Part shown: positions 34,301 to 61,145 of the stretch, one piece after another
How positions within the stretch are numbered: position 1 is the first letter of the stretch
How the letters are laid out: the number at the start of each line of letters is the position of its first letter
Assembly: GCF_018977255.1 (NCBI RefSeq)
Contig: NW_024704742.1
Location: 83,702,001-83,766,000 of the forward strand
Source: Callorhinchus milii
Lineage: Eukaryota
DNA length: 64,000 nt
Direction: 5' to 3'
Translations under genes and position numbers: made by a program
The notes under the pieces: generated by a model
The model's input: only the letters and a program-made list of their open reading frames with translations
Told to the model about the DNA's origin: nothing
The model's database searches: none

Positions 34301-34949
34301 GAATTAATCCTTTGTTCCCTGTTTTGAGCGTTTTTCCATTTTTTTAAAAAAAATCAGCCTTCGTGTCAAATCAGATTGAAAACATCTTCCAATTGTTCGA
34401 GAAAGTCTCTTTACCAGACTGCTCAACAAACATCATTACACCCCTGCCCCCACCACACACAACCATTAAAAAAATTGTGTTTCTGAGCAAATGCCTCAAC
34501 TCGCAGAAAATGTATATAACAGACCATTTCTCTCATTTAATAAGTTTCACTAAGGACAACATAAAGCATATTCAGCTTCAGATGCCCAGGGTGAAACACT
34601 ACTCTATTAACTCTGGGACCTAGGCTGAAATGTAGCCCAGGCTTACAGAAAGAAAGCCTTCTCCAAGAGCAAGAATATGATGGAAAATGAGCTTGAGCAG
34701 TCTCAAAGATCTTTTATCGCAACAATGTTCCTGGAGAGTATTAGGTGCACAAAGCTGCCCACAATTAACCACAAGCTAGCACGCTCGCAGAGAATAACAG
34801 TGGCTGGGCAAGAAGACACACAGTCACCGGTGTAGTTAAGCCGATGAGGGAATGGTATGGGCTGCCTTCAACTCAACAAATAATAATCGTTGCATTTGAT
34901 ATTGCACCTTATCATGTCACTGAGATGTCTCAAAGCACTTCACAGAATA

Positions 34950-35674
34950 CTTCTTCCCCACATTCGCGCCACAACTGGCATCGCCTTCCATCACCTCCGG
35001 AACATCGCCAGACTACGGCACTACCTCACCCCTCACGCTGCTGAAACTCTGGTCCACGCCTTTGTCACCTCAAGGCTGGACTATGGGAACTCTCTCCTCG
35101 CCGGCCTTCCCGCCACCTCCCTCCACAAGCTGCAGGTCATTCAGAACTCTGCAGCTCGTGTACTGTCCCGCACCAGGCTTCGGGACCACATCACTCCCAC
35201 CCTCGCTCGCCTCCACTGGCTCCCCACCCCCAGAGGATCGAATTCAAGATCCTCATCCTCACCTACAAGGCCATTCACGGCCTCGCTCCCTCCTACCTCT
35301 CCAACCTACTATCCCCCTACCTACCTGCCCGTACCCTCCGTTCCTCTGGCTCCGATCTGCTCCACATCCCCCGCCCCAACCGCCCTACCATCGGTGGTCG
35401 GGCCTTCAGCCTCTCAGCCCCGAGGCTCTGGAACTCCATCCCCCAGTGCCTTCGCCGCCTCCTCCCTTTCCTCCTTCAAGGCCGGTCTCAAGACCTTTCT
35501 CTTTGACCGTGCCTTCAGCTCCCCTCTCGACTCTCTACCCCCTCCTCGCTCCCTCCCTTCCCTCACCCACCCTGAGCATTTCCCCCCTGCTCGGGCCCTG
35601 ACCCAACTGTGCAGCGCCTTGGGACGTCCTCCCGACGTGAAAGGCGCTCAATAAATGGAATCTTGTTGTTGTTG
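34950..35674 (+). mobile_element. L2 LINE 3' fragment inserted into a minus-strand SINE
   Basis: [40 protein letters not shown]...LQVIQNSAARVL; similar to 24920-25607; (TTG)n tail; SINE halves on both sides. Confidence 0.93.
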
Positions 35675-35802
35675 TACTGTAAAGTGAATTGATTGTATTT
35701 TGTAGGCAAATTGCCTACTTGGTGTTGGGGAGGGGGGAGGGGGTTTGTGCTAAAATGGGTGGAGTGGCTGATTATTTTGACCCCCTTTAATGTTCGTATA
35801 AA

Positions 35803-36215
35803 ATAATAATCCTTATATTTGTCTTATCACATCAGGAGAACGTCCCAAAGTGCATCACAGAATATACTGTGCAGTGTAGTAACTGTGTATTTTGTGGGTG
35901 AATGCAGCACCTAATTTGCGCACAGCAATGCCCCACAAAAAGCCACGGAGTGAGTGACCAATTTTATTTGGGGAATTGTTGGCTACAACATCAGGAGAAA
36001 CTTCCTTGTCTTTTTGAATAGTTCCATGGGATCTATTACATCCACTTGAACATACAGACATCGTTGCATCTTGTCTGAAGGGTGGTACCGCCAATAATGC
36101 AATAAACCCCAGCACTGCACTGGAGTGTCACCTTCGGCAAAGCCAGATCCAAGTCCAGATGTGGGGCTTGACATCACAACTTTCTGACTCAGAGGCAAGA
36201 CTGCTACCAACCGAG
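35803..36215 (-). mobile_element. Family B Deu SINE
   Basis: Reverse complement of the family B modules, head at about 36160-36215. Confidence 0.82.
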
Positions 36216-39200
36216 TTAAACCTATTTTATCTTGACCATAAGAGGGAAGGGAAACAAACTTTGAAAAAGAGAGATTAACGCATCCTTTCACCTGATGTGG
36301 GCTCAGGTCCAGCCAAATTTACCACTCTTAAAAGCCTCCTCTGTTTATCGTTGCTCTGTAAAGGGTCCGAACATGAAATGAATATGGGCAGTCACAACGC
36401 AGTTCCCAACAGACATGCATTCAATGCACAAAACGGTCTCCAGTTTGGTAGTCACGTTCACAAACCACAAGTTGGCAAGTGTGGAAAAGGGAGATGGTCA
36501 AACCCATACGACAGTCGATTCACATCTGGGGCTTGGGCAGAGAAGTGGGGATACTGATACCATGGCTGGTTATCCTATACGAGGCCTAGGAGTACTTGAT
36601 ACCCGTACTCGGTGCTTCAAGTGGAAAAATGGTCTGTTACCCAGCAACATTACTAGCGACAAAACATACCAACCCAGAGCTTGCCTTTTTTTTAAAAAAA
36701 GTGTGTGTATAGTATACGCGTATATAAATTAATATGTATATATTACATATACATATATTATATAGTTAATACATAAGTTTATAATAAACAAACATGCAAC
36801 TACATCAGCATGTAACAGCATATTATAAATTACTCATTAAATATAAAAAATAAGTTTTTAATCAATTAGTTATGAACCTAATCCAATAGTCCAGTTCAGA
36901 CTCATTTTAAATTAAACCCAAAAGGAAAACTAAGCTTTAAAACAAAGTATTAGTGTTTCTGGGTACAGTAAGTCAGGAAGGTTAGCACGGGGCTAACCTG
37001 GGCACGGTTTTTCAAGGCAGCAAATTGCTTAACGGGGTGTCTGGTCTGGTGCAGAGGATTGGAGGTAGCTGGTGTGCGATAGCAATCTGCTTCGTCACAA
37101 CCCGTTCCACTGCAATGCAGTTTTTAAGATTTAAATTGCTAGCGTGCTACGTGATCTCCAACAGCCACTAAAACACCCTTAAAGAATCTCGGGGAAAAGT
37201 TGTTACTCAGCTTATCGTCGGCTAATACACACAGCAGGAAATTCTAACTATACCTAGCCGTTGAAATATTTGTATTTCTTCAAAAATTAATAAAACGTCA
37301 AGAACTTTAAAACCAGCAAAATGTCTCACTGGAGACGGTTCCTTTTCAGTCATCATAAGATGAGTTTCTGCTTTATAAGTTCTTCTCTGTTTGTAAAGGT
37401 GTTGATGCCCTGCTAGAGTATGGATCTGGGGGAGTTGGCAGCCATTCAGTGACCATTTTTAGGTGCCTGAGTCAGATCGACCATGAGAATGTGTTCATCA
37501 GAGCAAGCAGAGCCCAACATCAACATGTACGCATTCTAATAGGAGTCACTCCAGATAAGGTCAGGTATAGTCCGTGCGTCCATCCCCCACAGTGAATGAC
37601 GTCCATTAACTAACAAGATAGACGAGAAACTGAACCTGGAATTTTCTCGCCCGGGGTGGCTGGGTGCCACACAACTGGGACAGTGGGGGGAGCGATTTGG
37701 CAAGGAAAGGAAAGGAACAAACGCAAGCTTCTTCCCATTACATTCCCCAGCCAAAATCTCAAACTTTTCATTTAACCATCACAATGGTTGACTCAAACAC
37801 ACCAAACAGATTATGGGAATTATTGATCTCTTAATCCATCCAGCTCAATTATTCAGTGATTCAGTGACATAGCTATCCAACTGGTTTGGTTAGCCCCGGG
37901 GGGTTGGGGGGGGGGGGGCGGGAGAGGGGAATTTAGAGTCCCTGATTGGAGCCTCTTGTGGCATTGGCGACTTCAGATGCAGACCGCTAGACCACGAATA
38001 ACATTAGCTAACACTGCTTCATTCAAAGAAAGGAACATTAGATGTGCGTGCAAGTAATAGCTTGCACTTCTAGCACACCCTTCACATAGGGACAGGGTTA
38101 AACACCAAGCGGGAGGGGAAGAGAGGAAAGTAGTCTTAGGCAGAACTTAAGACAGAAAGAGAGGGGCGAGATAGAGTGGTAAAGGGAGAGTGGTCCGAGG
38201 TTCTAGTCCTCTACATTCAGTTTTATCCTTGCTTACCAAAGATGTGCTGTGCAGACCATAACTCAAAATAACACCTATAGACTACTGAGTTACTGTACTT
38301 CACAGTAAATCCTACAAAGCTCTTTGAGATCCCCTCCCAACGTGAAAGCATTATATTTATTGTAAGGATTATTATTTATTCACTAATTCACAAATCCATC
38401 CCAAGTGCAAACAGAATGCATTCCTGAACCGGAGATAACACAGACCAGAAAAAAAACACTTGCATCTAGAATCATCAAAACACCAATGCACTTCTCAGTG
38501 ACTACAGTCGAGTGGAACAAACCATTTTGTAGAGAAAGGCAGCAGCCATTTTGCACACAGCAAAGTCTTACAAACAAGCAAATGACCAACACATCTGGAC
38601 ATTTTCTTGCCAGGACACACAGAGAAACTCCTTTTTCTTTTCATGGAATCCTTAAAGTCCACTTGAAGAACAGACAGGCAGGACGGGACCACAATTTAAC
38701 ATCTTGTCAGCCAACGCAGTGTCAGAATAGGCTATCAGCTCAGTCTCCATATGGGGTTTGCAACCCAGAATCTTCTGCCACAAGAGGCGAATGCTGCAAC
38801 TTTAAACTGGAAATTTGAGATTACAACAACAAAGCAAAAATGTTTCCGGATAGAAACAAAGCCCCAAAGGGTACGGAGGTACAAGGGCCCCAAGAGCCAT
38901 TGTAAAAAGAGCCATATAAAAAGAAAACGTACAGAGCAGAATCTGTCCGGGCTAAGTGTAGAAAGTGCATTGTAGCAAATAATAATAATCCTTGCACAAG
39001 ATAAATTTCACACCGCGAAGGCGTCTCAAAAGATTTGCTTAATGTGTAGTGACTTCATTTTTTGAAAGTGATTATCCACAAACTTCAGGATTTTAACTCA
39101 ATCATAAGTCTACAGCTTTTTTTTTAGAAAAACAAAATAAACTCCCAAAATAATTCTAATTTGTTTTTAATGCAGATTCCATTTTCGGTGTTTTTATTTT

Positions 39201-39619
39201 ACTTCAATCAGAGTATTCATTTTAAATAGTGTAACAAACGTTACGTTAGTCCTGTAGGGTAGTGGTTAGATCCTGGTCTTCACCTACAAAGCTCTCCATG
39301 GCCTCGTTCCACCCTACCTCTGCGACCTCCTAACCCCCTACCAACCCGCCCACTCCCTCCGCTCAGCCGGCTCTGGCCTGCTCCACGTCCCCCGACCCAC
39401 CCGGGTCTGAAATGCTGTACACTGTCCCAACGCCTTGGGACGTCCTCCCAACATGAAAAGCGCTATACAAATCTAATCTTCTTCTTGTTGTTGTTAACCA
39501 TCAAAATACAGTCAATCCACTTTATAGCACATCTTGTGAAGCACTTTGAGAAGTCTCAACAATGTGATAAGGTGTGGTGAAGCACTATATCAAATGTAAG
39601 GATTATTACATTTCTCACT

Positions 39620-39726
39620 GAAGGAGTTCTGTCGAAAAGCCATCGACCTGAAACCTTAACTCACTTTCCTCTCTCCATAGATGCTGCCTGACCTGCTAAG
39701 TGTTCCCAGCAAATTCTGTTTTTATA
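39620..39726 (+). mobile_element. Penelope-like element terminal repeat fragment with a degenerate hammerhead motif
   Basis: CTGTCGAAAAGCCATCGACCTGAAACCTTAACTC...CTCTCTCCATAGATGCTGCCTGACCTGCTAAGTGTTCCCAGC resembles the chondrichthyan Penelope end as I recall it. Confidence 0.7.
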
Positions 39727-42700
39727 ACAAGGATTATTATTATTATGCCAAGAAGTTTGTCTTTGGTGCATTTGAAAAGTAAGTTTTTTTTTAAAAAAGT
39801 AACGTTTTAGATAATACAGCAATAAGGAAAAATCGCCAAATCCCAGGCAGCGGAAGCAAGGATGAATTCATCAGAATACATGTTGGAAAAGAGGATTATG
39901 ATGGAAGTTTGCAGAACTTTGTTTTGGTTATAATGGATTGATTACATTAGAGTTGACCATAACAAATATAAAAATGATAAATCTTCATATTTTGATACAC
40001 TTCTTAGAAACTCTCAAACCTGTTAAGTATAGTGATTGCGGCAGTTAATTTGCACATAGCAATGTCCCAAAAAGACACAAAGTGAATGACCAATTTTGTT
40101 TGGAGAATTGTTGGCCAGGAAACTCCCTTCTCTTTTCAAAGTCTGCCATGGGATCTTTAACATCCATCTGAACAGGCAGATGGGACCTCGATTTAACGTC
40201 TCTTCTGAAGGACGGCACATTTGGCAATGCAACGCTTCCCCCAACAAAATCTTTGAACTGGGTGACACTCTTTGAAACTAAACCATTAAAACTGGTCAAT
40301 TTTTTTTAAAAAAGGATATAGTATCAGTGTTGTTAACACCAACACATACTTGCTAAATTACACACCCTGTAAGAGTTTAAATGGCCCTTTGAAAATATTC
40401 CCTTTCTCTCTCTCTCTCCCCACCCCCAAACCCCACCATCCCCTTCCAGGGCTTGGCTAATAAAATACACTTGGTGATTTACAACTGGTTGCAGGACTGA
40501 CGGAGGTCCACAGAGACGCCAAGACCTTTCTCGTCATTATACATCATTATACATCTCCCCAAACGAACAGTTTCCGCAACAGGCAATTACACGCAAGAAG
40601 CATCCAAGAATCTGCACAAATGTCTCAAGTTATTGAACAGATGAAAATCTAACAAAATACAGTGGGTGGGTGGTGTTCGATGTCCAGGAAGCATCTGATT
40701 GCTGAACAAAAGCTACCCATGTAACACGCACGCACATCAGAGTTACAAGTCAGACAGACATAATCAAGGTAACACCAAGACCAAAATGGCAGCTTGAGAT
40801 AAATACAAAAAGTACAGTAAGCCTCAAGCTTGTGCTCCATTCTGACAGGATCCCCCCACCCCAACACCTTCACTGGGCCATTACTTATTCTTGAAGCGTC
40901 AAGCGTAGAGTAAGCTTATTAAAAGATCTTTTGCTATTAGGAACTCTCCATACATTACAGATAAGATTCCTCGAGCCACCGACAAATTAAACTGGGTAGA
41001 ATGCAAAGTGTGGGTGGGCATGCAAGAGAAGTGGGGGGGTGGGGTGACAATATGCAGAATAGCACTCATCAAAATGTAGAATAATCAAAGATTGGAAAGG
41101 AAAGGAGTTTTAATATGGAAACAAGACACATTTTGAAAGGAAACATGAAACACAATGGAGACGTTTCTCTCAGCAAAGGTGAAAAGTGGTCAATCAATCT
41201 GATGCCGTTCATAGCGTATGGCAAGTATCCTGAAGCCATCAGAACATATTTAGACTCTGAACAAATCACGTGCATTCTCTCTCTCTCTCTTCTGATACCA
41301 GCCTGTATTCTCAGCTTCAATTCCAGCTGTTCCCCCCTCACAACTTCTCTCCCTCCCCGAAAATCAGGCAGTCACCTGCTGTCTCGGTGCTATGCCATAC
41401 TTGTCTTTTTACCATTTAAAATCTATAGAAAGGCCAAGCAGAGAGAGGTCTGAAGCCCACTTTGGACCACTTGTTCAGTGGATTTGGACCACTTGTTCAG
41501 AATGAACCATCCTTCGGACTGCTCAATGATACTTGAAACTCAACAGAAAGACCAGACTGATTTTCTCCAGGAGCGATTTGAACTTCTGAGTATAGAAAAT
41601 GTTTCCCTAAAAGGCAAACAACTGTTGCCTCCAATAGAATGCAACATGCATTGTCACTCAAAGGAAATAAAATGTTAGTGTTAAGCTGAGGTCCAGTCTG
41701 TTCAGGTGGATGTTAAAGATCATGTGGCTCTATTACAAAAGAGTGCGGAGTTTCTCCCTATGTCCCGGCCAATAATCTCACAAATAAAATTGGTCACTCA
41801 CTCCATGGCTGTTTTAAGTGTGTTTTATAATAAAAATGTTTACGACAAAAACAGAAAATAATTTGCATCATGCCAGGAGGAAAGACCAACGGCATTTAAG
41901 ACATTGTATGGTATCAACTATAGGTCAAATATTAAAATAAGACCAGCTTCAGTTTGGAAAATAATATTTTTTTCCAACCAAAACAGCAGTTAAACGTTTT
42001 CTGTGAGTGATACCAATTTATTTTGGGTTTTACAGTCCAAAGTAAACCAACTTCATGAAAATGCTGCCATTGACTTAATTTTTTTAAAAAAAGAAAAATT
42101 GGCTAACTTTCCTGGTCAATGAATTGCACTAATATCTGATTTTGTTGTTAGAAAATTTACTCAAAAAAAAACTTGGGAGATTTGACAAATTGAATTTGAA
42201 CTCTCCAACATTTGCAAGTTTCTATTATGTGCTCATCTTTCAACTGCCTGTCAGGATAGAGTCCAAGAATGTCTCTCATCCGCTGATGACAGTTTACATT
42301 GCAGGAATAGAACAGTATCTGAAACAGCCTGAAGCTGGTGCTCGGATCCTGTTTGTTTACATAGAAATTTACAACACAATAGAAGGCCGTTTGGCCCATC
42401 ATGTCTGTGCTGTCTCTTTGTAAGATTTCTGATCTTTCAAAGCGCTCCGGGACGCAACCCCATGTGAAGGGCGCTATATAAATGCAAGAAAATACAAGTT
42501 ATAAAATGCAAATTTGTGTTGTTCAGCCTGAATTTCCTGCCTTTTCCCTATACCCTGGCAAATCCATAAGATGTCAATCCAGTTCCCTCTTGAAAAACAA
42601 CATGGATTTTGCTTGGACTAGAAAGCCTGGCCAGGCATTCCACATCTTAACAACTCTCTGTGTAAACGAACAATTGCTCCTCATCTCCCCCTTAGTTATT

Positions 42701-45700
42701 TATCTTAAACTGATGCCCTCTAGTCACTGGCGCACTGACCGTTGGAAATAATTTCTCTCCGTGGACAATCAAACCCCGTATACACTGTGGGGCAGAATCC
42801 AAAGTGCCAAGAACTGCACATGTTTAGCTTGTGCGTGTGCAGTTGTTTCCAACTTGTGATGTTCTCTGGCCGCAGAATTTTCCAAATCTCTGGGATAGGT
42901 CCAAACAAACAAGCCAGCAATGCCAAGACCACATGTCTGGCCTGCAAGGATGGGTTGGTGACAGCTCAAACCTTCAACTCAATCCACCTAAAACATGAGA
43001 ATCAATGTACCTTGTGTAAACTAGATGCAATGCCTATCCCAGCTGACCCAGGTGAGATTTGGACCCACTTTGAGATTCACAAACAAGTGGCTTCAGAGAC
43101 AATACCAACAGCACCTTATTTACATTGCAATTTTCTTGCTGAACACATGGCTGGCACCAAAGGCTGTGCTGGAACGTAAACATTATGTAATGGAAAGCAT
43201 AAGTTCACAAGTAAGAATTCTGGATTCCTGTAATATGAACTGCTCCGTTTCTTAGTCTGACACTCTCAATCTCTCCAACTGCACCTCATCACTGCTAGAT
43301 CTAAGGAAGCATCAACAGCTCATTGCACTCAACATACCTTTACAAACATTTACAGGTGTTCAGATAACAAACCACTCAAGTTTAGTTTTCATTATTCTTA
43401 GGATTATCTGATCCCTTTAACTGAAATACTGCTTGGTAATGTAGTTAAAGCTATAGATCAATATTTTTGAAGCTCCACTGTATTAACGCATTCTTTAAAG
43501 GTCTTGGTATTCAAAAATATGTATTATGCACATCAAAGGCTAATAATCATTTATTAATAAGCTAATAATCATCCACTTTACAGTATATCCTACATCAAAT
43601 GCAAGGATTATTATTATTATTATGCTGTGAAGTGCTTTGAGACATCTCAACAACATGATAAGTCACTATATCAAAATCAAATATTATTGTTAATAATAAT
43701 TGGAATAATCCTTGCGTTTGACACAGTATCTACAACATCGAAACACCTCAAAGTACTTTGCAGGTAATTACTGGCAAACGTAGTGCCTATTTATAGGTCA
43801 GTAATTGTTAAGAGAAATGTAGCTTTAAAATAAATCTCTTTTAACCCACAATCAAAGTCTTCCTTAATACAACACCACTACATCCATCAATTTGCATAAT
43901 CACAAGGTCAGAAACTTTTATGTAGTTATCAAGCAATTACTATTTGAATGATTGAGGTAACTGTGCCACATTCAAATCTCTCGACTCCAAACTGAAGCTT
44001 TTTGTTGTACATGGCTTGGAATGAATACGAATACAAAGATTTCAAAATATGGCTTTGATTCAACAGTAACTTGCATTTATATAGCGCTCTTCATGAGGTG
44101 TAGTGTCTCAGGAGCACAGAGCAGAATCTCTCGCTCTGCCCTCCTCAATGACCAAACAATAAAGACTTTGGTTCCTACTAATTTAAGTGTTCAAATAACG
44201 ATGAAATATTCGAAAGAACAGAAAGCAATAAACCTCATTTAAAAAGATAGTTCAGGACAGAAATTGAACTGGCGACATTTACATGCTCACAATAAGAACA
44301 ATCACTGTTTCCGGCTCGTACAATTCAGAGACTATAATTGATGAAGTTGTAACAAGCCTCAGCCAACCTATAGAGTGACCCAACTGCGACCGAGACAGAC
44401 AATCAATTGTTCTCACTACCATAATCAGTTTCTTGTCTTTGATATCTTTGCAAACCACTTTTTTCCACGCAACTACATTTTATCACTTGATCTGAATACA
44501 CCATTTTACCACCTCCAGCGCACTGCCACATTCCACCCACCCATATACCAATTTGCTTTGTGGTTTCTGATAGTACCCTTCCGGCAGCATTGGGCAAACC
44601 ACTTTATGTACAAGTTGCGCACTGGGACATCCCTTCACCTGGTGCTGACTGCAGTGAATGGAAAATATTGAAAAGGTTATCTTATATTACGTTATGCAGC
44701 TAACATTTAAAACTACTGACCTTCCATTAAACTGCACAATGTAAAACTGCTAACCGCTCAATTTTATAAAGAGCTCGCTATCTGTTATTTTACTCGTGCA
44801 ATATAAAACAACTAACAAAGCCTCTCTTACAAAGTCACCAGGCACCATTTTAAATAGAACCAGGACTTCCCCACCCAACCTGCAGGCTAGCCAAGAGTCT
44901 CAGGCAGTCCGTGTCCTGACAGACAGTCCAGCTGGTTGGGGGCGCGGGGGAAGAGAGAAAGTGCAGGAAAGCTGAGTGGGATGGTGTTACAAGACCCTCC
45001 ATTTCACTCTCTGCAACACATTCAGTACAGATCGGCACAATATGTAGATAGAATATGAATTTACATTTATATATAAACCCACTTGTTTCAATATATATCT
45101 GAAAAAAAGTAAATTCAAATGAATCCTGCACTGGCAACCAGATATCTCACACACTGGTTTAGACAGAGAGCTGTTGTGCGGCCCTTTTTGGCACCATCTC
45201 AAGAATTACAGCAGGGAAAACAAAATGGGGCTCCATCAGCCGCCAACTCCATGTCTTCGTTATGGAAAGGGTCTTTTCAGATCACAAAAATCTCCAGGGT
45301 GGACGTAACTCGATTCTTGAGGCTCTCAACCTCACCCACCCGCCTTCACCCTAATAATAATCCTTGCATTTGATGTAGCGCTTCACAAAATATCCTGTAA
45401 AGTGGATTGACTGTGTATGTTGTGGGAGAAACAAGGCAGCCAGTTGCACAGAAATGTCCCACAAACCTCCATGGAGTGAGTAACAATTTTTTTTATATAT
45501 ATATATATATATAAATTTGGGGCAATTCTTGGTCAGGACATCGTAAGAAACTGCCTTCTCTTTTTGAATTGTGCCATGGGATCTTTAAACATCCACCTGA
45601 ACAGGCAGATGGGACCTGACATGAGACAATGAATGAAGACTCATTTGTGAATGTTTATGTTAATTGGGAATTTCAACGAGAGGATAAATGGACACCACAG

Positions 45701-46467: not shown

Positions 46468-46719
46468 CTTGTACAACCCGAAGCCTGGATCTATGAGAAA
46501 TGATCGAGTCGATGTGGTTGGACGATTCTTTTTATTGTTTTCCCCGCTGGAGGTTTTGTCACATTCGCTCTGCGAAGAACCACAGCCGGAGTCGCTGTCA
46601 GATAGCTCAATCTCATTTTCCTTTTTCTTCGCCGTGGAGGTCGAAGGCTGGCGGATCAGAAGTTGGATGATATCATTCAGTCCCACGTTGTAATCAAACA
46701 GTGTATGGCCATCTTCCAA
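46468..46719 (-). CDS. UHRF2: UHRF2 coding exon 2 (rest of UBL domain and UBL-TTD linker)
   Basis: Pyrimidine tract + CAG acceptor; translates LEDGHTLFDYNVGLNDIIQLLIRQ...LIDPGFGLYK; LIDPGFGxYK is UHRF2-type; ends at AAG|GCAAGT (GC donor), phase 0; 252 nt. Confidence 0.93.
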
Positions 46720-47798
46720 CTGGGGAGAGGGGTGGGGGGAAAAGAAAGATTTCTCGTCATACATCCTTCACATTACAATAGTTGGGCAGAAACAGAACAG
46801 TAGCTTTTACTGCACTAGATAATCATTCAATAAATATAAATAATACTAATACTTCTTGCATTTGATATTAGCACCTTATCACATCATTGAGACGTCTCAA
46901 AGGCTTCACAGAATATACAAATAAAAATACAAAGATTATTATTACTGTAGTGACTGTATATTTTGTGGGCAAAATACAGCAGCTAACTGCACACAACAGT
47001 GTCACACAAACAGTCAAGAATTAAGTGAGCCAATTTTTTTTATTTTTATATAAAGGATTACCTCTGGAAAGTGATCCGCCAATCATCTAACAACAGTATA
47101 AATATACACGAGCTCATTGACCCAATTCAGATTTAATTTGTAATAACAATCCTCTCTTTAGGTTCAAAATGTAATCAAGATCAATAGGATGAATTGCAAG
47201 CACCGGCTCATTAACATAAAAGGAAGCTGTGCATTGTGCACGTGGTTTTAAACTGAGGAAGTGCACTATCTTACTGTTATTACAATGCATCCATGAGATT
47301 CCCAGACCACGTGTCCAGTGAGAGCAAACGCCCTCTTATTGTGTGCCCCGCTGGACACATCTCTGCTTATGCTTATCACCGTTATGGCAATTTAGAATTT
47401 TTATATATTACACCTGAGCTTTGCATTCTAATTTGCGTGTACTCTTCCCGTAGGTAACTTGCCTTTCACCATTGCCCTAACAAGGTTTCGCTTTGAATTA
47501 CGTGACAGAAGAGCTGGTGACACAATGATACAGCACCAAGGTTATTCTCAAAAATGCACTCATATTTTACACAAATAACAGCAGTGTATACATTGTTTCC
47601 CAGGAAAATATACCCCGGACCAAGCTTGGAATAGTGCCAGTGCACCAATGCTAGATACCCTTCAGCTTTATGCCTTGCTTTGCCTTCATTAGATTGGTGT
47701 GGGAAGTTCAATCCAGATCATGCTCTGATCCGGGGCTGAAACTGAAACCAAAGTAATCCACAAGTTTCGTGAAAGATTCTCAGTTATGCTGGCTACAG

Positions 47799-48123
47799 AA
47801 TAATAATAATATTAATAATCCTTGCATTTGATATAGCGCTTTTCACATCGGGAGGACGTCCCAAAGCGCTTCACAGAACACACTGTAAAGTGAATTGACT
47901 GTATATTTGTGGGCGAACGCGGCAGCCAATTGTGCACAGCAATGTCCCACAAACAGTCGTAGATTGAAAATGACCAATTTATTATTGTTTTTGGTTTTGG
48001 AGGGATTATTATTAGGCGTGTGGAGTAAGGAAACTTGCCCAAGGTTTCGCCCTCTGCCTGGAATTGAACTCAGGTCTCTCACTTGCAAAGCGAGTGCTCT
48101 AACCACTGAGCTACAGGACTCCA
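47799..48123 (-). mobile_element. Full-length young family A SINE in intron 1
   Basis: Near-identical reverse complement of 5764-6068. Confidence 0.92.
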
Positions 48124-49929
48124 AATAAGTGACGTTTGAATGCTAATTTATAATAAATAATCCTTGTATTTGATATAGCACCTTACCACGTCGTTGCGAC
48201 ATCTCAAAATGCTTCAGAGAATATATTGTAAAGTAGATTGATACTATTTGTGGGTGAAATTTAAAAACACATAATGAACTAAAAACACTTATTTATTCTG
48301 AATCTACTTAGTTCAGTAAGTTGAAGCTGTGTTGTCCAGGGGCCTGGAAGAAAGGTTTGAAAAGTTACAACCCACTTTAAACAGACTCCTTTACATCTCT
48401 GTTCATGGAATGCAATTCACTGCTGAAAGAGTTTCTCTAGACATTTGCCATCATCTAAGCAAGCTATCAATACTATAATAACTGATATTTCTGGCAAAGT
48501 AATAAATGACTCATAAATATTACATGAATGTCTGAATGGACATTCAACGTGGATTTGTGAAAAAAATTCAAGACTATGAACCCTCTCTTTTCACTTAGAG
48601 TGGATGGACATCTTTCCCATTGATAAATCTTCAATTAGGATTTCTAGTGTAAATGAAAACAGTTTAGAGCGACTTCTGGTACTCTCCCAAGACTATTCTA
48701 TAACCTTCATAGAATATATTCATTCCATCAAGGCTCACGTTTCCAATGATTGTCAGCAGTTGAACAATTTTCTTGCTAACACTTTACACGCTCACTCCAC
48801 TGTGGTTCATAACCACTCTAATGCAGTGGCTCCCATTTCTTACTCAGACTGTAATTAAAGACCAAGGCAACCAAGTGGCTTCATACTGCCCTCAGAGATT
48901 AAAACAAGTACAGTGCCACGAAACGAGGCTAAGCTGTCTCAACTGATTTGATCTCATTTGCCTCAACTTTGAGATAAGTGTCGGGGGAGGGAGAAGGGGG
49001 GTAAGGGGGGGAAGGAGGTGAGGGGAAAGGGAAGTTAAGGAAGAAAAGTATTGATCGTTTAGGATGGCGGAGGATTGCCGAGAAACAGGTCTCCAGTTCT
49101 GAATCAGACCAGCAGATGGAGTTGAGTCTGCAAACAAGGCCCTCCATTTCCTCGCAGTCAGGTCAACAGCACACGAGAGCTTCCTACCCGCAAAGCCCAC
49201 GTCAATTTTAGGTAACAGGCCCGCTCATCAGGCCTGCTCTGAGACAAGTGACAAAGCAGTCAACGGCTGGACTAGTTTAAGGAGCAGTACTCCTCAAATT
49301 CCACAGTCAGTGTTAGAAAAGCTAACACCTCTGTTGCATTCAAAACAAAATGCTTCTAAAATCTTGTGAACCAGCTCTACCCTCATATCAGAATGAGTAG
49401 CTTCAACGCAGTCGTTTTTTCCCCACTTAGCAAGGAAGCACAATCCATGTAGCAATTTCACTTTCCCATTCATTCCCACATGACATTCAAGGATCAGCCA
49501 GGTGAGAATAACTGTGCTAACACGTGACCACTCCCCCCCACCCCACCCTCTGCCCCAAAACACAACACACAGGCATTCAAGATATTTTTAAATTTTCCAC
49601 CCTTCAAACCTGTTTTGCTTGAAATGAAATAGGTAAATAAGGGGAAGACAAACTCTAACAAGCAGGAAGTTTCAGGCATTAACTTTTTTTTAGAAAGAAA
49701 AAACACTTCAAACACAGACCATTTTAACATTATGGCAATCCAGTGTTAAGTCATACACTGTATAGCCTTGTTCTCAGGCCTTGTTTTAATTCCTTTCACA
49801 AGACACAGAATAGGCCATGTCCAAATACAGAATCAATTTACATCAATACATAAATTTTACTAAATCAAATATCCATCCATTCCTCATTCGAAAACTTGGT
49901 GCATTAATGTATAAATGTTGAAATGGACA

Positions 49930-50330
49930 GCCCCAGTGATGTAGTGGATAGAGCTGCAGCTTATGCCATTTGGCTCTCTAGTTTGAATCAGTCCATGCTG
50001 TATTTACTGGTCTCACCCTGCAGCAGGAGGATATATGGTCCCCAATCTTCCCAGGGTTAGGGAGGGGGAAACTAGCCTGGTTCCTGCTCTTGATCCTTTT
50101 ACACCACCCTTTACTGGTTGTGTGTGTGTGTGGTAGCCAGATAGGGGAAGTCAGGGTTGGCTGCGATGCCATCAGTCAAGTGGCCTGTGGACAATATCAA
50201 GGCCCACACATTAACACTGGTCACTTGGGAGGGGTATCAGAGGGTAACCAGCACCTATGGAACCACACCCCAGCAAGAGGAGGCAGAGCCAGGAGCAGAG
50301 AGGTGTATACCAATGGGAAGAAAATCAGAA
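49930..50330 (+). mobile_element. Near full-length AmnSINE2-like ancient SINE
   Basis: CCCAGGGTTAGGGAGGGGGAAACTAGCCTGGTTCCTGCTCTTGATC and GGTCACTTGGGAGGGGTATCAGAGGG...ATGGAACCACACCCCAGCAAG match the AmnSINE2 consensus as I recall it. Confidence 0.7.
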
Positions 50331-53300: not shown

Positions 53301-56041
53301 GGGGAGGCAGAAGGAAAAAAGCTGTATTTGAAACAGCTGCAAACTAAGTTTAAATACCATTTTAAATGTTCTTCCCCCACCCCCCAAAAAAAACTATTTT
53401 GACATAGCCATTTTAGGCTGCGACTGCTTCAGTCTCGGGAATAACCCCCAACCAGTTCCTTCTATTATCCCACTGGGACTTCCTGTCTTAACAAAAGTAT
53501 TGGTAAGAAGAAAAAAAATAGGATGTTAAAAGGGAATCATATGCAAAACCTCTTAGTTTAACTTTACCTGAGTAATTTGCCTTAGAACAAGAGATAACCC
53601 TAATCCCTTACTTTAAAAAAAACTATTACACTACTGTATGGTTCATTTCATAAAGTCTGTTTGAAAGATGCTTAACACAGAATATTTTCTTAGCCTGTAC
53701 AATCCTCCTCTAAAACAAATACTTCTAAAGCCCAAGGTGCAAACTGAACTCAAACTGCAGTTAGTTGGCTAGTTTTGTCAGAAATGATATTCGGCTGCAT
53801 CCAAGGGGACTTGCACTTGTGTGAAACAAAAGAGTTCCTCATGGCAACACAATGATGAAAATCTGGCTTTCTCGCGCCACATGGGCACTTAAAGCAACTT
53901 GAGGAACCTTTGAACCTGTGGTGAGATCTGCAAAGCCAAAGGTTTGTATTTTTTTAAAAAAACACACACATTTGTCTCATTGCACCAATTCATACAGTAA
54001 TTCTCTACAATGCACACCTTGCAGTTTGATAGTTATATTTCAAGTCCAGAAAGCCTGACAGCAGCAAATTGCATTCATGTAGAAAACATGGTGGTCTGTA
54101 CAGATCCCAGGAAATCTATTCCCAGCCTTATTTACATTTTATTAAAAAGTGCAATTCCCCCCCAAAAAAAGTTTATCAATTTTTTTATGCCACTTAAAGT
54201 TAAGTTCACCAAATAAAATTCAGAGAAATTACTTTTATTTTTGCACGCATCACATTGATATCTTGATTGCATTTTCAAGTGAGGAACTTTGTACAATTTA
54301 CATACAAATAAGTACATGGCAATACTAGGCGGTGGGTGGGGGGGGCCCTTCCCCCAACAAAAACTGATCGCAATTTTTTTTGATATGCTTCAATTGCACT
54401 TTATATATCTTGTGAGGCGCTTCGAGACGTCCCAATAAAGTTATTAGCCGCTATATCAAATACAAGGTTTATTATTACTATTATTAATTGCTTACTTTGG
54501 ATTACTTAGTCCGTTTACGTGCGACTATGTACCTCCCGCACCCCACCACCACCAAGCAGCAATAAACCAACCAAAATAAGCGGCCAAGCAGCAGAGCCAT
54601 CAGCCATGCGGTCAAAAAGATTATAGGTCGACAAATCTTCGCGTAGGTTGGTGGGTGGGGGTTGGGAAAGGGGAGGGAAAAGATTAAACGGCATTAAAAA
54701 TACAACTGATTGTTTCTCGCCATTAAGAGGCGGGAATCTCCTCCCTGTGAGCACTGCGCTGCACTCTGTGATTCAGCCCTGAGCTGGGAAGGCAGGAAGG
54801 CAGGAAGGCAGGAGCTAAACAAAGCTTTCTGCCTGGACACTGCTGGAGGGCGATGTGCAGCAACAGCAGCAGCAGAGACCACAGACCTGGACGAAAAGCA
54901 CATTCCGCGCAAACATAAAACCCCCTCTCTCTTCTCCACCCCCCTCCCTCCCTTCTCTGCTCCTCCCCCCCCCCCCCCCTCTCTTTCTCCACAGGCAGCG
55001 TGTGTTCGCTCTGCTCCACATTTACGGGCCTGCGTTTAGCAAATCAAACCAGACAGGAAGCTTTCCCTTTCCTCTCTCCTTTCCCCCGCCCTCCCATTAT
55101 AAACTGCCAATTCCATTTATTTTTAAGAGAAAAAAAAGACACAAGTAATACCATAGACGTTTACGGTAAACGCTAACTTTGTTGTAGTTTTTTTTTAAAA
55201 AAGAGGACTTTTCTTCAGATAGAACCCACCTACTGATGCTCCTCACTTTCCCTCTCCCCCTCCCCCCTCTCCTGGCCGCCTGTAAACATGTGAGCCGCGC
55301 TCATGGCTGGCCACACTCACTCATCCAAACACACTTTACAGTACATTCTGTGAATCGCTTCGAGACGTCTCGAAGACATACGACGCTATATCAAATGCAA
55401 CGATTATTATTATTATTATTATCATCATCCTCCTCATCATCATCATCTGCTGCCGGGGATGTTTCGAGCTTTGCGGCTGGAGCAGGGTCCCTGGTGTTGG
55501 AGGGGGTAAAGTGGGGGGGGGAAGAGAAGACGAGAGACAAATCCAACATTCTTACAGACTCTCTCTCATCCCCTCCCCACACACATACAATTAAAAAACA
55601 AGCTTATTTTTACAGAGAGACAGGCAGACAGCTGGACTGAGGCTGTAAAACCCAGAAAACAACAGCTTACTTGGGATATTGTGTGTGTGTGTTTGTGTGT
55701 GTGTACAGCAGTCAACAAAAAAATAGCCCTTTGCACCCCCAACAAAAATAACCATTTTATTTCACTATAAATATATAAAAGCAATGGAGAGGTCACACAC
55801 ACACACACACAAGAGCCCAACGAAGAGAGCCTTTTACATTTCCCCCCTTTCCCCCCACTCCCTCCCTCTCCCTCCCCACCACCCAAAAAATATATATATA
55901 TTTTAAAAAAATGTAATGTCTTATGAAAAAAAACACATGTGGAAAAAAAAAGACCTTTCTTTCCCTTCGGCAGCAGGTGGGGGGGGGGAGTGTATGAGGA
56001 AATATTGGGTCAACAATTTGCTGGTGACAATCCCAGGTCAC

Positions 56042-56453
56042 AGAGGGAGAAGAGGAGGGAGAGGAGAGGAAGAGAGGAGAGGGAGAGGAGAGGAAGAGAG
56101 AAGAGAAGAGGAGAGGAGAGGAGAGGAGGAGAGGAGAGAGGAGAGAGGAGAGGAGAGGAGAGGAAGAGAGGAGAGGGAGAGAGGAGAGGAAGAGAGGAGG
56201 AGAGGAAGAGGAGAGGAGGAGAGGAAGAGAGGAGAGGAGAGAGAGGAGAGGAGAGGAGAGAGGAGAGGAAGAGAGGAGAGGAAGAGAGGAGAGGGAGAGA
56301 AAAGAAGAGAAGAAGAGAGGAGGAGAGGAAGAGAAGGAGAGAGGAGAGAGAAGAGGAGAGGAAGAGAGGGGAGAGAAGAGGAGAGGAAGAGAAAGAGAGA
56401 GGAGAGAGAAGAGGAGAGGAAGAGAGAGAGGAGAGGAGAGAGGAGGAGAGGAA
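56042..56453. repeat. Pure polypurine (GAGAG/GAGGA)n tract in intron 1
   Basis: About 410 nt of only A and G on the plus strand. Confidence 0.95.
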
Positions 56454-56745
56454 CGTGCTCTTTTCTGGGTTACTCAGCAGCTGAACGGGAAGAAAGAGAA
56501 GGCGACACTCGGGAGGAGGAGGAGGAGGGTTGAGTTTCATTGACACACACACACACACATACACACACAACAGTTTTGATTTTGTTTCGGGGGCGGGGGG
56601 GGGGGGTTTGCAAAAAAAAAAAAATTTTTTTTTAAATAAACAAACAAACATATAAATAAATAAAAAAAATAAAATAAAATAAATGAGTGAGCGAGTGAGT
56701 GAGTGAGTGAGCGGGAGAGCTGTGCTGTGCTGTGCTGTGTGTTAC

Positions 56746-56898
56746 CTGTTTGCCTCTGTAGAACAGGCGCTGGCAGTCCGGGTCCACACTGAAGCTCTCC
56801 TGGATCTTCACCCTCAAGCCCTCGATCTTGGTCAGTCGGGACAAGTCGTCGATGCACCGGGTTTGTTTGCCGTCGATAGTACGCACTTGAATCCACAT
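56746..56898 (-). CDS. UHRF2: UHRF2-type E3 ubiquitin ligase, coding exon 1 (N-terminal half of UBL domain)
   Basis: ATG at 56898-56896; translates [51 protein letters not shown], the UHRF1/2 N-terminus; ends at phase-0 donor CAG|GTAAC; 153 nt. Confidence 0.95.
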
Positions 56899-57112
56899 TT
56901 TTCTTCCCTCTCTTTCACTCTCTCTCTCTCTCTCTCTCTTTCTTTTCTCTCTCTCACTCTCTCGCTCTCTCTGTGTCTCTCTCACTCTCTCTCTCTCTCC
57001 TTCTCGCGTCTTCTTTTTTTTCCCCTCTTCTCCTCTCCCGGTTTTCCTGCCGCTGTTCACGAAACAATGAGGACCCCCTCTCTCCCTCTCTCCCTCTCTC
57101 TCTCTCTCTCTC
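56899..57112. repeat. Interrupted (CT)n microsatellite = GA-rich 5' UTR directly before the ATG
   Basis: Runs of ctctctct on the plus strand. Confidence 0.85.
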
Positions 57113-57379
57113 TAATGAAACGACCCCCCGTGTGATAACCAGCGGTGACAACAGGTTCAAGGACGAGGAGGAGTGTGGGGGAGGGGGGAGGGGGGGGGGG
57201 AGGGGGAGAAGGGGAAAAGGGGGAGGGAGGGAGAGGAGGAGAGAGAGAGAGGGGGGGGGACCCCACCCACCAGTCTGTAGGTGAGATAAGAGAGAGATTT
57301 TGTTGATATTGCAACAACAAAAAACCGACCCCCAAATGGTGCACTGTGTAATAAGGAAAAATAATTCCCCCCTTTTTTT

Positions 57380-57555
57380 CAGGGCCGAGGCCGAGGCCGA
57401 GGCTGAGTGGGGCTCAGGCGGAGGGCTCCTCACCAGCGGCGGCGGCGGCTGTTTACTGAGCGCTCAGAGCCTCGGCTCTCAGTCACTCACACACACACAC
57501 ACACACACGGGGTCACGGCGCCAAACAACTCTCGCGAACATAGGATAGTGATTGT
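57380..57555 (-). promoter_or_regulatory. Probable UHRF2 core promoter / first non-coding exon region
   Basis: Local CpG cluster with (GGCCGA)3 and (GGC)n; E2F-consensus TTTGGCGCC on minus strand at 57517-57525; TCTCGCGA at 57530-57537; about 0.5-0.65 kb upstream of the ATG. Confidence 0.6.
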
Positions 57556-57562
57556 TTATACA

Positions 57563-59068
57563 GAGAGGGGGGGGGAGTGATGGGGGGAGGGGAGTGAGAG
57601 GGGAGGAGAGAGGGGAGGGGGAGGAGAGAGGGGAGGGGGGAGTGAGGGGGGGAGGGGAGTGAGAGGGGAGGAGAGAGGGGAGGGGGAGTGAGAGGGGAGG
57701 AGAGAGGGGAGGGGAGGAGAGAGGGGAGGGGGAGAGGGGGGAGGGGAGTGAGAGGGGAGGAGAGAGGGGAGGGGGGAGGAGAGAGGGGGGGGAGGAGAGT
57801 GAGGGGGGAGGGGAGTGAGAGGGGGGAGAGGGGAGGGGGGAGTGAGAGGGAGGAGAGAGTGAGAGGGGGGAGGAGAGAGGGGAGGGGGGAGTGAGGGGGG
57901 AGGGGAGTGAGAGGGGAGGAGAGAGGGGAGGGGGAGTGAGAGGGAGGAGTGGGGGAGGGGGAGTGGGAGGGGAGGAGAGAGTGAGAGGGGGGAGGGGAGT
58001 GAGGGGGGGAGTGGGGGGAGGGGGAGGGGAGGAGAGAGTGGAGGGGGAGGGGAGTGAGGGGAGGAGTGGGGGAGGGGGAGGGGGGAGTGAGAGGGAGGAG
58101 GAGGGGAGGGGGGAGTGAGAGGGAGGAGTGGGGGAGGGGGGAGTGGGAGGGGAGGAGAGAGTGAGAGGGGGGAGGGGAGTGAGCGGGAGGAGTGGGGGGA
58201 GGGGGAGGGGGGAGTGAGAGGGAGGAGTGGGGGGAGGGGAGGGGAGTGAGGGGGGGAGGGGAGTGAGAGGGAGGAGTGGGGGGAGGGGGAGTGAGAGGGG
58301 GGAGGGGAGTGAGAGGGAGGAGTGGGGGGAGTGGGAGGGGAGGAGAGAGTGAGAGGGGGGAGGGGAGTGAGCGGGAGGAGTGGGGGAGGGGGAGGGGGGA
58401 GTGAGAGGGAGGAGTGGGGGGAGGGGGAGGGGGAGTGAGGGGGGGAGGGGGGAGTGAGGGGGGGAAGGGGGAGTGAGGGGGGGAAGGGGGAATGAGGGAG
58501 GGGAGGGAGGGAGGAGGAGAGAGGGGGGGAGGGGGAGTGAGGGGAGAGTGCGAGGGGAGGGGGGAGTGAGAGGGGACGAGAGAGTGAGAGGGGGGAGGGG
58601 AGTGAGAGGGAGGAGTGGGGGAGGGGGAATGAGTGGGAGAGGAGGGGGAGGGAGGAGAGAGAGGGGAAGGGGGAAGTGAGAGGGGGGGTGGGGGAGGGAG
58701 GAGAGAGGGGGGGGAGGGAGGAGAGAGAGGGGGGGAGGGGATGGGGAGGGAGAGGAAACAAGGCGCAGGGGATGGGGGGCCCAGAGAGAGCCAAGGGGGC
58801 CGGGCAGAGGGTCATGGAGGGGGTGCGGAGAGGTGGGGGCGGGGGGGGCAGAGGGGGGAGGAAGGCACAGGGGGGGGCGCAGAGGGGAACGGGCAGAGGT
58901 GGCACGGAAAAGATGGGGGAAAGGGGAGGCGGAGGGGGAGAGAGGGGAGGCAGAGGGGAAAAGGGGTGGGGGAAAGGAAAGGAGATCCGGAGTGGGAAGG
59001 GGGCAAAGGGAGGCGGGGAGGGGTTTGTGGAGTGAGGAGGGGGTGCGCGGAGGGGAGAGGGGAGAGAA
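57563..59068. repeat. G-rich purine minisatellite / low-complexity tract built from GGGGAGTGAGAGGG(A)GGAG-like units
   Basis: Plus strand is nearly all G/A with T mostly in GAGTG units and almost no C until about 58750. Confidence 0.95.
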
Positions 59069-60220
59069 GACGCCCAAATGCTCAACTCTTTCCACTCTCC
59101 CCCGTTTTCTCTTCCAATTCCTTCCCTTTTATGCGCCATTAGCTACTTCTCATGCCATTTTACCTGGGTGTCAATAATTTCTTTCTCTTTCTGATATTCC
59201 CTCTAGTTCCCTGCCTCTAGTATTTCCTCCTCCCTTTCCTCCCCCCTTTTGGCGGGCTGGGGAAAGCCATCAAGCTCCGCCTTTCATTTAGAATAGCTTT
59301 TTATATAATTTTTTTAAAAAAGTTGGTTTGTTTATCTTGAAAGCGATGAGTTTTACAACCCATCCCCATCTCTCTCTCCCCACTCCCCTCTCTCTTTCTT
59401 TCCCCCACCCCCACCCAAAATAAAACCTTGCAAGAAATATACGTAGATTGATTTCACTTCTCTTCCCCCTCCCCTCCTCCACTTTCCCCAATGCAATCCA
59501 CATCGGCACACACACACACTGCATGGCTCGGGTTATTACGTTCCGCCAAGAATGCTTTGCGACGTGTTAAGAGACAAGAACTTGGTGATTTATGCGACAA
59601 AAGTGTTTTGCAAAACAATAAAAAAATAACTTCAGGAGATTGTTGTCCAGCAGCCTAACTCCTTAAGTTTATATACTGTATTAAATATACTATGGGAATT
59701 TAGTTTTATTAGAAAGAAGTCTTGACACATTCATGAGGCTCAACTCCCATCCCCCACACACACGCACACACACACTTCCAGCTTTGAGGACACACAGGAG
59801 CAGATATTTCCATTTTCTAGCAAGGAAGCACATTGCGATGGGGTGCGGTGGGGGGTATAGTGTTAACAGGAGCTAGGAACAGGAAGAATCCCTGCTCCCA
59901 GTGACTGATCTGCCCTCGCAAGTCGCCCCTTCCCTCGCCTCCTTCAAGGCCTGCCTCAAGACCTGCTTCCCCTTTGACCACACTTCTGGCCATTGTTCTC
60001 CACATCAACCCCCTCCACCCCCCCAGCTCGGGTACAACCGGATTGTTCAGTGCCCTGGGATGCCCTCCTGACATGAAAGGCACTAAATAAATTAAAATTA
60101 GTATTACATAAGTCCTACCAACGAGCCAGTGTCCTATAGCAATGCAGATAATAATAATAATCCTTGCATTTGATTTAGCTCCTTACCATGTCTTAGGGAC
60201 GTCTCAAAGCGCTTCACAGA

Positions 60221-60555
60221 ATAATAATAATAATAATAATAATAATCCTTGCATTTGATATAGCGCTTTTCACGTCGGGAGGACGTCTCAAAGCGCTTCA
60301 CAGAACACACTGTAAAGTGAATTGACTCTATGTTTAGTGGGAAAAATGCGGCAGCCATGGCACACAGCAGGGTCCCACAAACAGTCGTGGATTTGAGTGA
60401 CCAAATTATTGTTTTTTATTCATTTGTTTTCTTAAGGGATTATTATCAGCTGTGTGGAATAAGGAAACTTGCCCAAGGTTTCGTCCTGTTGGGAATCGAA
60501 CCCAGGTCTCTCGCTTGCGAGGCGAGCGCTCTAACCGCTGAGCTACAGGACTCCA
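60221..60555 (-). mobile_element. Full-length family A SINE nested inside an older SINE (remnants about 60147-60220 and 60585-60665)
   Basis: Head at 60490-60555 (anticodon CGC), long (TAT)n tail; older tail on the left and older Deu segment on the right. Confidence 0.88.
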
Positions 60556-60890
60556 ATAACTGAATGCCAGACCGTACAGCAGAATGCCTGTATATCTTTT
60601 GGGTGAAACGCGGCAGCCAATTGCGCACAGCGGTGTCCTATAAACAGTCGAGGAATGAATGACCCTCATCGTACCATTCACAAGCTGCAACTCATCCCAA
60701 AGTCTGTATCTTCACCCTCATATACAAATCCATCCCTGGTACTCCAATCCAACTCTGATCTCCTCCAACCTTATTCCTCCATTTGCTCCCTCTGCTCACC
60801 CCTCCCTTTCTGCTTTTTTAATATAACACATAATGATATATAGTATATAACCCTATAATATATAACAATATATAATATATAATCCTATAA

Positions 60891-61145
60891 TATAATAATA
60901 ATCCTTGCATTTGATATAGCGCTTATCACATCTTCTAGACATCTCAAAGCGCTTCACAGAATAATAATAATAATAATAATCCTTGCATTTGATATAGCGC
61001 TTTTCACGTCTTCTAGATGTCCGAAAGCGCTTCACAGAATATACTGTAAAGTGAATTGACTGTATATTTGTGGGCAAAACGCGGCAGCCAATTGCACACA
61101 GCAGTGTCCCACAAACAGTCGTGGATTGAAGTGACTAATTTTATT
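60891..61145 (-). mobile_element. 5'-truncated Deu SINE with tandemly doubled 3' tail
   Basis: Two consecutive tail units (60891-60960 and 60961-61040) followed by the Deu segment. Confidence 0.85.

Follow-up and report, generated by a model that had tools for sequence, protein, structure and literature searches.

The short interspersed element (SINE) studied here, a tRNA-Ala-headed repeat found in Callorhinchus milii, the elephant shark, carries a six-base loop, TATATT, at the seam between its body and its tail, and copies of the same SINE are found inserted in this loop throughout the genome. Most of these events leave one SINE with two tails rather than one SINE nested in another. The site was noticed in a 64-kb stretch of the genome (NCBI RefSeq assembly GCF_018977255.1, contig NW_024704742.1, positions 83,702,001 to 83,766,000), called the window in what follows, where a first-pass annotation made from the sequence alone had seen five copies broken at the loop. 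Its proposal of a recurrent integration point is borne out genome-wide, with 656 junctions against 77 at a TGTATAT control site, and this recurrence supports its further suggestion that new SINE copies are steered into old ones. We think it rather likely that loop insertions arise by reverse transcription driven by the long interspersed element (LINE) L2, primed by pairing of the terminal (AUU)n with the nicked loop and closed in register, and that some of the resulting composites were later amplified.

The survey of the SINE family covered 344 kb in total: the window itself and random stretches, amounting to 280 kb, from the same 991.5-Mb genome. There are 52 nhmmer matches in the 64 kb of the window, a density about equal to that of the random stretches, and 267 in the whole sample. 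A 310-base consensus was built from 14 full-length copies. In order, it consists of a transfer RNA (tRNA) head, the body, stem 1 TTTACAG (232-238), the loop (239-244), stem 2 CTGTGAA (245-251), the tail and (ATT)n. With up to 3 mismatches allowed, the window has 22 occurrences of the 20-base stem-loop motif, where shuffles predict 0.01. The head of a full-length window copy (47812-48122) is called by ARAGORN as tRNA-Ala (tgc) at 48049-48119 on the minus strand. In the window and the random stretches alike, L2 3′ ends with (TTG)n align to SINE consensus ~245-298, and by eye ~35 of the 50 nhmmer matches that begin at consensus 236-252 are such L2 ends. Because the L2 ends align from ~245 on, the TATATT loop marks the point where the body meets the L2-derived tail. 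Two young subfamilies are distinct in loop and tail: the first has the loop TATATT and the tail ...TCTAGAAGACG..., and the second, the younger, has the loop TGTGTT and the tail ...TCCTCCCGACG....

Junctions were tallied genome-wide with exact anchored patterns, and ten junctions outside the window were also read individually. The same-sense pattern is a host tail anchor, up to 30 bases, and the start of an incoming SINE tail; the junctions themselves are made up of host tail, loop remnant, (AAT)n and incoming SINE tail. The 656 same-sense tail-to-loop junctions all lie within 30 bases of the tail anchor, and reversed-pattern controls gave 0 matches each over the genome. Among 100 listed same-sense junctions, ~84 are in the loop, 13 are at CTGTAAA^ in stem 1 (^ marks the point of junction) and 3 are elsewhere. 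Over the same-sense, control-site and antisense junctions, the forms are CACAG(A/G)ATA^ATAAT, CACAGAATATA^ATAAT, CTGTAAA^TAAT and GACTGTA(TA)^ATAAT. Antisense SINE insertions after TTCACTTTACAG number 74, with ~60 in the loop, and the loop has ~551 same-sense versus ~60 antisense SINE events, ~9:1.

Other sites are used much less. The control site TGTATATTT (TGTATAT), 20 bases upstream, has 77 junctions, ~59 of them on the site. Antisense insertions at the sense-strand (AAT)3, positions 108-116, gave 52 matches, ~16 in this SINE family. L2 copies with (TTG)n tails are inserted in antisense 21 times near the loop (~12 in the loop itself), and a control stretch has 10 (TTG)n L2 insertions. Rates were set against the intact targets of the 344-kb sample, namely 26 TATA-type loops with anchor, 30 control sites, 18 sense-strand loops and 12 (AAT)3 sites. 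Events per intact target are then ~21 for same-sense insertion in the loop, ~2 for the TATAT control, ~3.3 for antisense insertion in the loop and ~1.4 for (AAT)3. The antisense strand of the loop is ~10x busier than the similar TATAT site, and the other classes lie within about two-fold of each other. A scan of the literature by title and abstract found no paper describing this tail-to-loop junction.

The first-pass annotation had pictured the site as a hairpin with a 7-bp stem, possibly a preferred endonuclease site for L2. The endonuclease would recognise the stem-loop, perhaps in extruded form, and nick the loop regardless of which tail the incoming element has. The quasi-palindrome is present, but as DNA its stem has a T.G mismatch and folds at only -3.5 kcal/mol (z -1.8; 16 of 200 shuffles fold as well). 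The folding energy is the same, -3.5 kcal/mol, with either a TATATT or a TGTGTT loop, yet TGTGTT-loop hosts with the same stem supply 2 of the 100 listed junctions versus 10 of the 36 intact anchored loops in the 344-kb sample. This shortfall has a binomial P of 4e-5 even with the expectation halved for the shorter exposure of those hosts. With stem and folding energy equal, the rare use of TGTGTT hosts argues that sequence, not structure, is favoured. Integration thus depended on the loop sequence instead of the stem, and it varied with the tail repeat and orientation of the incoming element (~551 versus ~60 for SINEs; 21 versus 10 for L2). The second cluster, CTGTAAA^TAAT, lies inside stem 1 (~13 of 100 listed), and both this and the 9:1 orientation bias speak against recognition of the hairpin. 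Recognition of the hairpin would explain why both loop strands are used and why (TTG)n L2 also enter the loop, as they do in event a of the window and in the ~12 of 21 cases genome-wide, two of these in TGTG-type hosts. They cluster there only mildly, however, at a density ~1.5-3x that of the control stretch (21/44 anchors versus 10/35; small numbers). A hairpin-guided nick is in our judgement quite improbable, and the weak hairpin is probably incidental to insertion.

The loop also grows by itself. This was seen at L024:7659-7760 and L031:32-111, with a 45-base AT-rich microsatellite at consensus 235 in one copy and a local ATATACTGT duplication in the other.

The structure of the composites shows how loop events usually end. 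Nine of the ten junction loci outside the window lack a host body upstream of the incoming SINE, and L001 alone is nested with a host body. The remaining junctions, in L002 (two junctions), L004, L005 and L034-L038, consist of a SINE, full-length or 5′-truncated, then (ATT)n, then another tail unit beginning at consensus 241. Tail-doubled copies outside the window have unrelated upstream flanks. Genome-wide, a host body abuts a full-length SINE head at the loop in only 39 cases, and the 656 tail-to-loop junctions compare with 142 junctions of a tail to a full-length head. Isolated tail units beginning at 241-246 number none in the 344 kb. Simple nested insertion at the loop, as first supposed, therefore describes neither event e of the window nor most of the genome-wide junctions, part of which look like inherited composites, an outcome that the first-pass annotation had itself named as counting against its proposal. 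The simplest answer to the question of the missing host body is that it is the body visible in the composite. Large target deletions were also considered as the cause of the absent host bodies and are implausible at nine of ten loci.

The distal tail of these composites is older than the proximal one. Of the 100 listed distal tails, 42 have lost the CpG dinucleotide in GAAG-CG-C to decay, versus 8 of the 100 listed proximal tails (Fisher P = 3e-8); in single copies the same CpG is decayed in 32% of the TATA type and 10% of the TGTG type. The young TCCTCCCGACG type accounts for 84 of 100 listed proximal tails. At the ten loci, intact CpGs amount to 41/50 in proximal tails, 24/50 in distal tails and 34/50 in bodies, the distal figure becoming 24/40 once a site absent from that subfamily is dropped. 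The greater decay of the distal tail indicates that it comes from an old host, and the proximal tail from a young incomer. Insertion of a truncated tail unit into the (ATT)n of an older SINE would make the distal tail the younger one, and was rejected on finding it older.

Bodies, too, can be older than the proximal tails joined to them. Of 68 listed composites in which the first loop is TGTGTT, 26 have the older-type marker GGGACACTGCTG, versus 1 of 9 single copies, a contrast that is not significant alone (Fisher P = 0.15). Private CpG losses affect the bodies of many of these 26, whose own proximal tails are intact. Among 16 loci that appear in both lists, CpG decay is ~18/64 in bodies and ~4/85 in proximal tails (by eye; Fisher P = 1e-4). 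The clearest locus is L004, where 1/5 body CpGs and 5/5 proximal tail CpGs are intact.

Template switching would produce doubled tails in another way. The reverse transcriptase would copy one SINE tail to the loop and jump, by AAUA pairing, to the (AUU)n of a second RNA, and the double-tailed complementary DNA (cDNA) would integrate elsewhere. This predicts the same-sense order of proximal and distal units with the junction at AATA, and a junction tied to tail context, as in the excess of tail-to-loop over tail-to-head junctions and the lack of isolated tail units in the 344 kb. It is also the usual explanation for SINE chimeras, according to a paper on elephant shark SINEs (PMC5499810). Two tails copied together should nevertheless be of equal age, and the distal tails are the more decayed, matching old single copies; nor are old bodies on pristine proximal tails expected from one RNA. 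We regard this origin as very improbable. Tail doublings as chimeras of template switching or end joining that need no loop target were dropped, given the older distal tail.

Priming at the nicked loop with closure in register would proceed as follows. A nick on the loop antisense strand (...CACAGAATA) would leave a 3′ end (...AGAATA) that could pair over AATA with the (AUU)n of a SINE RNA bound to the L2 reverse transcriptase. Target-primed reverse transcription would begin at the paired loop end. If the incomer has the orientation of the host, the cDNA would share homology with the host sequence immediately upstream of the nick, and its 5′ end would close in register by annealing, not end joining, as the structure of the composites suggests. 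The product would be a host body, partly overwritten, then the new loop and tail, (ATT)n and the old host tail. In a minority, closure would not use homology, and a nested SINE of the classical kind would result, for example event d of the window. Some composites may then act as sources and amplify, and tail units may expand into short tandem arrays.

Both ends of the insertions are consistent with these steps. Single full-length copies have target site duplications (TSDs) that begin with ATT plus a few bases (ATTCTC, ATTGT, ATTT, ATT[CT]GTGG), clear in ~5 of 13 readable cases, and this start with ATT points to ATT/AAT microhomology priming as the general rule. Loop junctions likewise share bases with the 3′ repeat of the element. 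The antisense strand of the loop ends in AATA, with four bases in register with the tail repeat, and sites with three (GTATA on either strand, GTAAA in stem 1) have 2-3 events per target. The AATA end recurs at a further place in the element:

Consensus 211-219: sense-strand site CACAAATA^TACAG, with the same AATA end as the loop.

On their structure, the 5′ junctions appear to have been made by annealing to target sequence, since nine of ten loci lack a duplicated host body and old bodies stand on young tails. Annealing-type 5′ joining and a 5-bp TSD are described for an L2-clade element by Yamaguchi et al. 2014 (PMC4245944).

The number of independent insertions depends on how many composites were inherited. 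Few origins would suffice if a handful of tail-doubled source genes had existed and most of the 656 were retroposed, 5′-truncated copies of these. The composites do behave like ordinary copies in their variable 5′ truncation and unrelated flanks. Some are visibly related: L034 and L037 have an identical 57-base distal tail that carries TCGAGAAGACG (TCGAG variant), and the same C-type body marker, and L038 is close; GTACGCAA is common to three loci, and three listed 80-mers are identical. The prevalence of one type among proximal tails (84 of 100 listed) also agrees with inheritance. Diversity at the distal side fits it poorly, with at least 6 distal-tail types among the ten loci, several junction forms (ATT^CTGTG, ATATT^CTGTG, ATCC^TGTG), and distal-tail CpG decay split into CA 22, TG 19 and TA 1 over the 100 listed. 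Old-type bodies with private CpG losses and pristine proximal tails would require separate hits on separate old hosts. Descent of most composites from a few origins thus seems unlikely.

A doubled tail could also form within a single copy, if its (ATT)n tail and the ATT in the loop took part in slippage or unequal exchange at the DNA level. Tail units do stand in tandem arrays, at a spacing of 69-86 bases (C1:10790959/10791033, 19398667/19398753, 91454419/91454488), the two extra units of L002 share a private GACTTC variant, and the tail module has been deleted between short direct repeats in L015:1518-1677 and in window 2574-2635. The two tails of a composite mostly differ in subfamily and age, however, and slippage explains the growth of arrays, not the first doubling, of which we consider it extremely improbable as the source.

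Three observations concern such rearrangements on their own account. The L015 deletion runs from the TATAT of the loop to a TATAT in the tail (consensus 249 to 291), and that in the window from the GTGAA of stem 2 to a GTGAA in the tail (consensus 252 to ~280). At L021:3605-4365 a full-length SINE, flanked by an 8-base TSD (ATT[CT]GTGG), stands within an old one at consensus 174, and a second full-length SINE adjoins ...TATATTCTGT with no host tail after it, an arrangement that fits none of the proposed models. Identical tail-to-head junction strings occur 3.6 kb apart on opposite strands, at G000:C2:80399037 (+) and C2:80402614 (-), and this pair suggests an inverted segmental duplication.

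Several points weigh against priming by microhomology with closure in register. Microhomology length alone does not fit the ranking of sites. The perfect sense-strand (AAT)3 is not hotter than others, at ~16 of 52 matches over 12 targets or ~1.4 per target, although this control is confounded, its hosts being mostly young full-length copies and its insertions antisense. The (TTG)n L2 share at most 1-2 bases with the loop yet place ~12 of 21 insertions in it, and some nick-site preference for the TA steps of the loop is possible. The variants shared among composites mean that amplification inflates 656 over the number of independent hits, by an unspecified factor. Junction classes were tallied by eye among the 100 listed matches, which come from contigs 1-2 only, and only ten junction loci outside the window were readable (L001, L002 twice, L004, L005 and L034-L038).

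We class loop insertion as a variant of the known microhomology-guided integration of L2 and SINEs. Ichiyanagi and Okada are said to have compared L2 and CR1 insertions along such lines. Priming and annealing in L2-clade elements share with the present case TSDs of ~5 bases that begin with the tail repeat, a target that matches the 3′ repeat, and an annealed 5′ end. The difference is that the target here is an older copy of the same element, which means that annealing can span tens to hundreds of bases; the nested structure is erased and the tail module duplicated.

Young Alu elements reportedly convert or replace parts of old Alu copies, in work ascribed to Kass, Batzer and Deininger in 1995 and in later studies. 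Alu gene conversion shares with our case that young SINE sequence replaces a stretch of an old copy in its existing place and leaves a mosaic of ages, but no module is duplicated there; here, out-of-register priming by the terminal repeat adds a whole second tail. R2 in ribosomal DNA is a sequence-specific non-LTR (long terminal repeat) element that targets a repeat, and Kojima and Jurka reportedly catalogued elements that target microsatellites. Such elements resemble the SINE in that insertions pile up at one short sequence within a repeated unit. R2-type elements, however, depend on an endonuclease or DNA-binding domain that is itself specific, and almost all their copies are in the target, whereas for the SINE a rough 3-15% of young copies are in the target and ordinary copies are spread over ATT-containing sites.

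This share was estimated from ~7 young-type SINE copies per 280 kb, which suggests a genome total of ~10,000-50,000 young-type copies. Correcting 656 for the loss by exact matching, perhaps ~1,500 young copies are in loops, or 3-15% if all are independent. TATATT loops would make up ~0.06% of the genome. A stronger proposal, which we hold only tentatively and think less probable than not, is that self-homology assists integration, the SINE/L2 particle preferentially completing insertion in same-sense older copies at the TATATT seam because both the priming, (AUU)n on AATA, and the in-register closure use the sequence of the element itself. If this were so, ~0.06% of the genome would house a rough 3-15% of the youngest subfamily, and the seam would be a built-in safe harbour that also yields double-tailed source genes and a route to the exchange of SINE modules. 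A self-targeting share as large as the rough estimate would lower the mutational cost of a SINE burst.

Insertion of a SINE into its own kind is resolved here as a duplicated 3′ module, not as a nested pair, and ordinary repeat annotation would read such a tail-doubled SINE as two fragments or as a 5′-truncated copy. Pile-ups of breakpoints are not safely taken as endonuclease specificity when the terminal repeat of the element matches the site. The proposed steps also offer a mechanism for the swaps of tails and modules inferred in these shark SINEs.

According to Luchetti, Plazzi and Mantovani (2017, PMC5499810), the tRNA-Ala-headed SINEs of the elephant shark are CORE-type CmiSINEs, the last ~160 bases of which derive from the Deu-type SacSINE1-CM, and both use L2-2_CM. 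The SINE described here shares with these a tRNA-Ala head, a tail homologous to the L2 3′ end and two closely related subfamilies, and it fits the CmiSINE (SINE2-1_CM, SINE2B-1_CM)/SacSINE1-CM group, names that we assign from the description in the covered parts of that paper. The earlier label of Deu SINE holds in part: the tRNA-Ala(TGC) head fits the CORE-type CmiSINEs, and the last ~160 bases are those derived from Deu-type SacSINE1-CM. This ~160-base 3′ part, common to both SINE groups, would explain the Deu-like sequence. The covered parts of PMC5499810 mention no nested copies, tail duplication or preferred site, and the words dimer, tandem and nested have 0 occurrences in them.

Two further elements are relevant to the family. 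An L2-like 3′ end at L016:4199-4270 has a SINE-type tail, ...GCGCTATATCAACTGCAAGG(ATT)n, rather than (TTG)n, and may represent the LINE subfamily that is the true partner of this SINE. A second form with the same tRNA-Ala head is found at window 15059-15166 and at many loci, as matches that end at consensus 107 and continue for ~70 further bases (CTGTTTACC...GGAACCCGGTTG...). It is perhaps a fuller, CORE-bearing form, and it also takes SINE insertions, at CAGTAA^TAATAAT.

Within the window, all five breaks (a to e) sit at the TATATT loop, consensus 239-244, as had been claimed, with event c the weakest. Event a is a true insertion of a 5′-truncated L2:

34879..34950, minus strand: host SINE tail, consensus 240-310, ending at the loop (nhmmer match, sequence reading).
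34951..35674, plus strand: 5′-truncated L2 with a (TTG)4 tail, antisense to the host, in the loop (sequence reading).
35675..35714, minus strand: host SINE body, restarting at TACTGTAAAG, consensus 207-247 (BLAST).

The last ~55 bases of this L2 align to SINE consensus 245-297, like other L2 3′ ends, and there is a possible 3-base TSD, TAC.

Event b is the end of a SINE tail within an old copy:

43573..43590, plus strand: host stem 1 and loop (CCACTTTACAGTATATCC), the host being 5′-truncated here (alignment).
43591..43622, plus strand: ~32-base same-sense SINE tail end, TACATCAAATGCAAGG(ATT)n (BLAST, 97% to consensus 293-326).
43625..43698, plus strand: old, diverged host tail (BLAST, nhmmer, alignment).

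The pristine tail end is flanked by ...ACAGTATATCC and (TG)CTGTGAAG of the old host, with TSD-like GATA/CATA of 4-5 bases on both sides. Because the insert is pristine and the host old and diverged, it is a later insertion, not slippage.

In event c a piece lies between CAGT and ATATT of the loop of a host SINE (46847-47060, minus strand), with weak similarity to a tail end at ~17/22 positions:

46919..46943, plus strand: 25-base tail-like piece, in the opposite sense to the host SINE (alignment).

Event d has both host halves around a nested SINE:

60148..60220, minus strand: host tail unit (sequence reading, BLAST, nhmmer).
60221..60555, minus strand: nested full-length SINE with a TGTGTT loop, TCCTCCCGACG tail and (ATT)8 (sequence reading, BLAST, nhmmer).
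60556..60664, minus strand: host body to the loop, consensus 146-242 (nhmmer).

Event e is a tail doubling, not a nested insertion, because no host body lies upstream of the 5′-truncated SINE:

60887..60960, minus strand: distal, older tail unit, consensus 241-309 (sequence reading, nhmmer).
60961..61170, minus strand: 5′-truncated SINE, consensus 125-310, its (ATT)n adjoining the distal tail unit (sequence reading, nhmmer).

The window holds 3 of the 656 exact junctions, C1:83745594 (event b), 83762206 and 83762946, versus 0.042 expected per 64 kb (Poisson P = 1.2e-5), and is atypical in this respect. On contig 1, 8 of the 100 listed junctions lie within 0.8 Mb at 83.58-84.31 Mb, including those at window 43594, 60206 and 60946; the contig averages ~0.8 junctions per Mb, and SINE density in the window is not raised alongside this clustering. 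One more copy in the window is interrupted in its tail: a full-length young SINE at 5765-6136 has a ~60-base insert between consensus 274 and 286, made up of CAAGG(ATT)3, which is a tail end, some unrelated sequence, and part of the tRNA head in inverted orientation (CTGAGCTACAGGAC).

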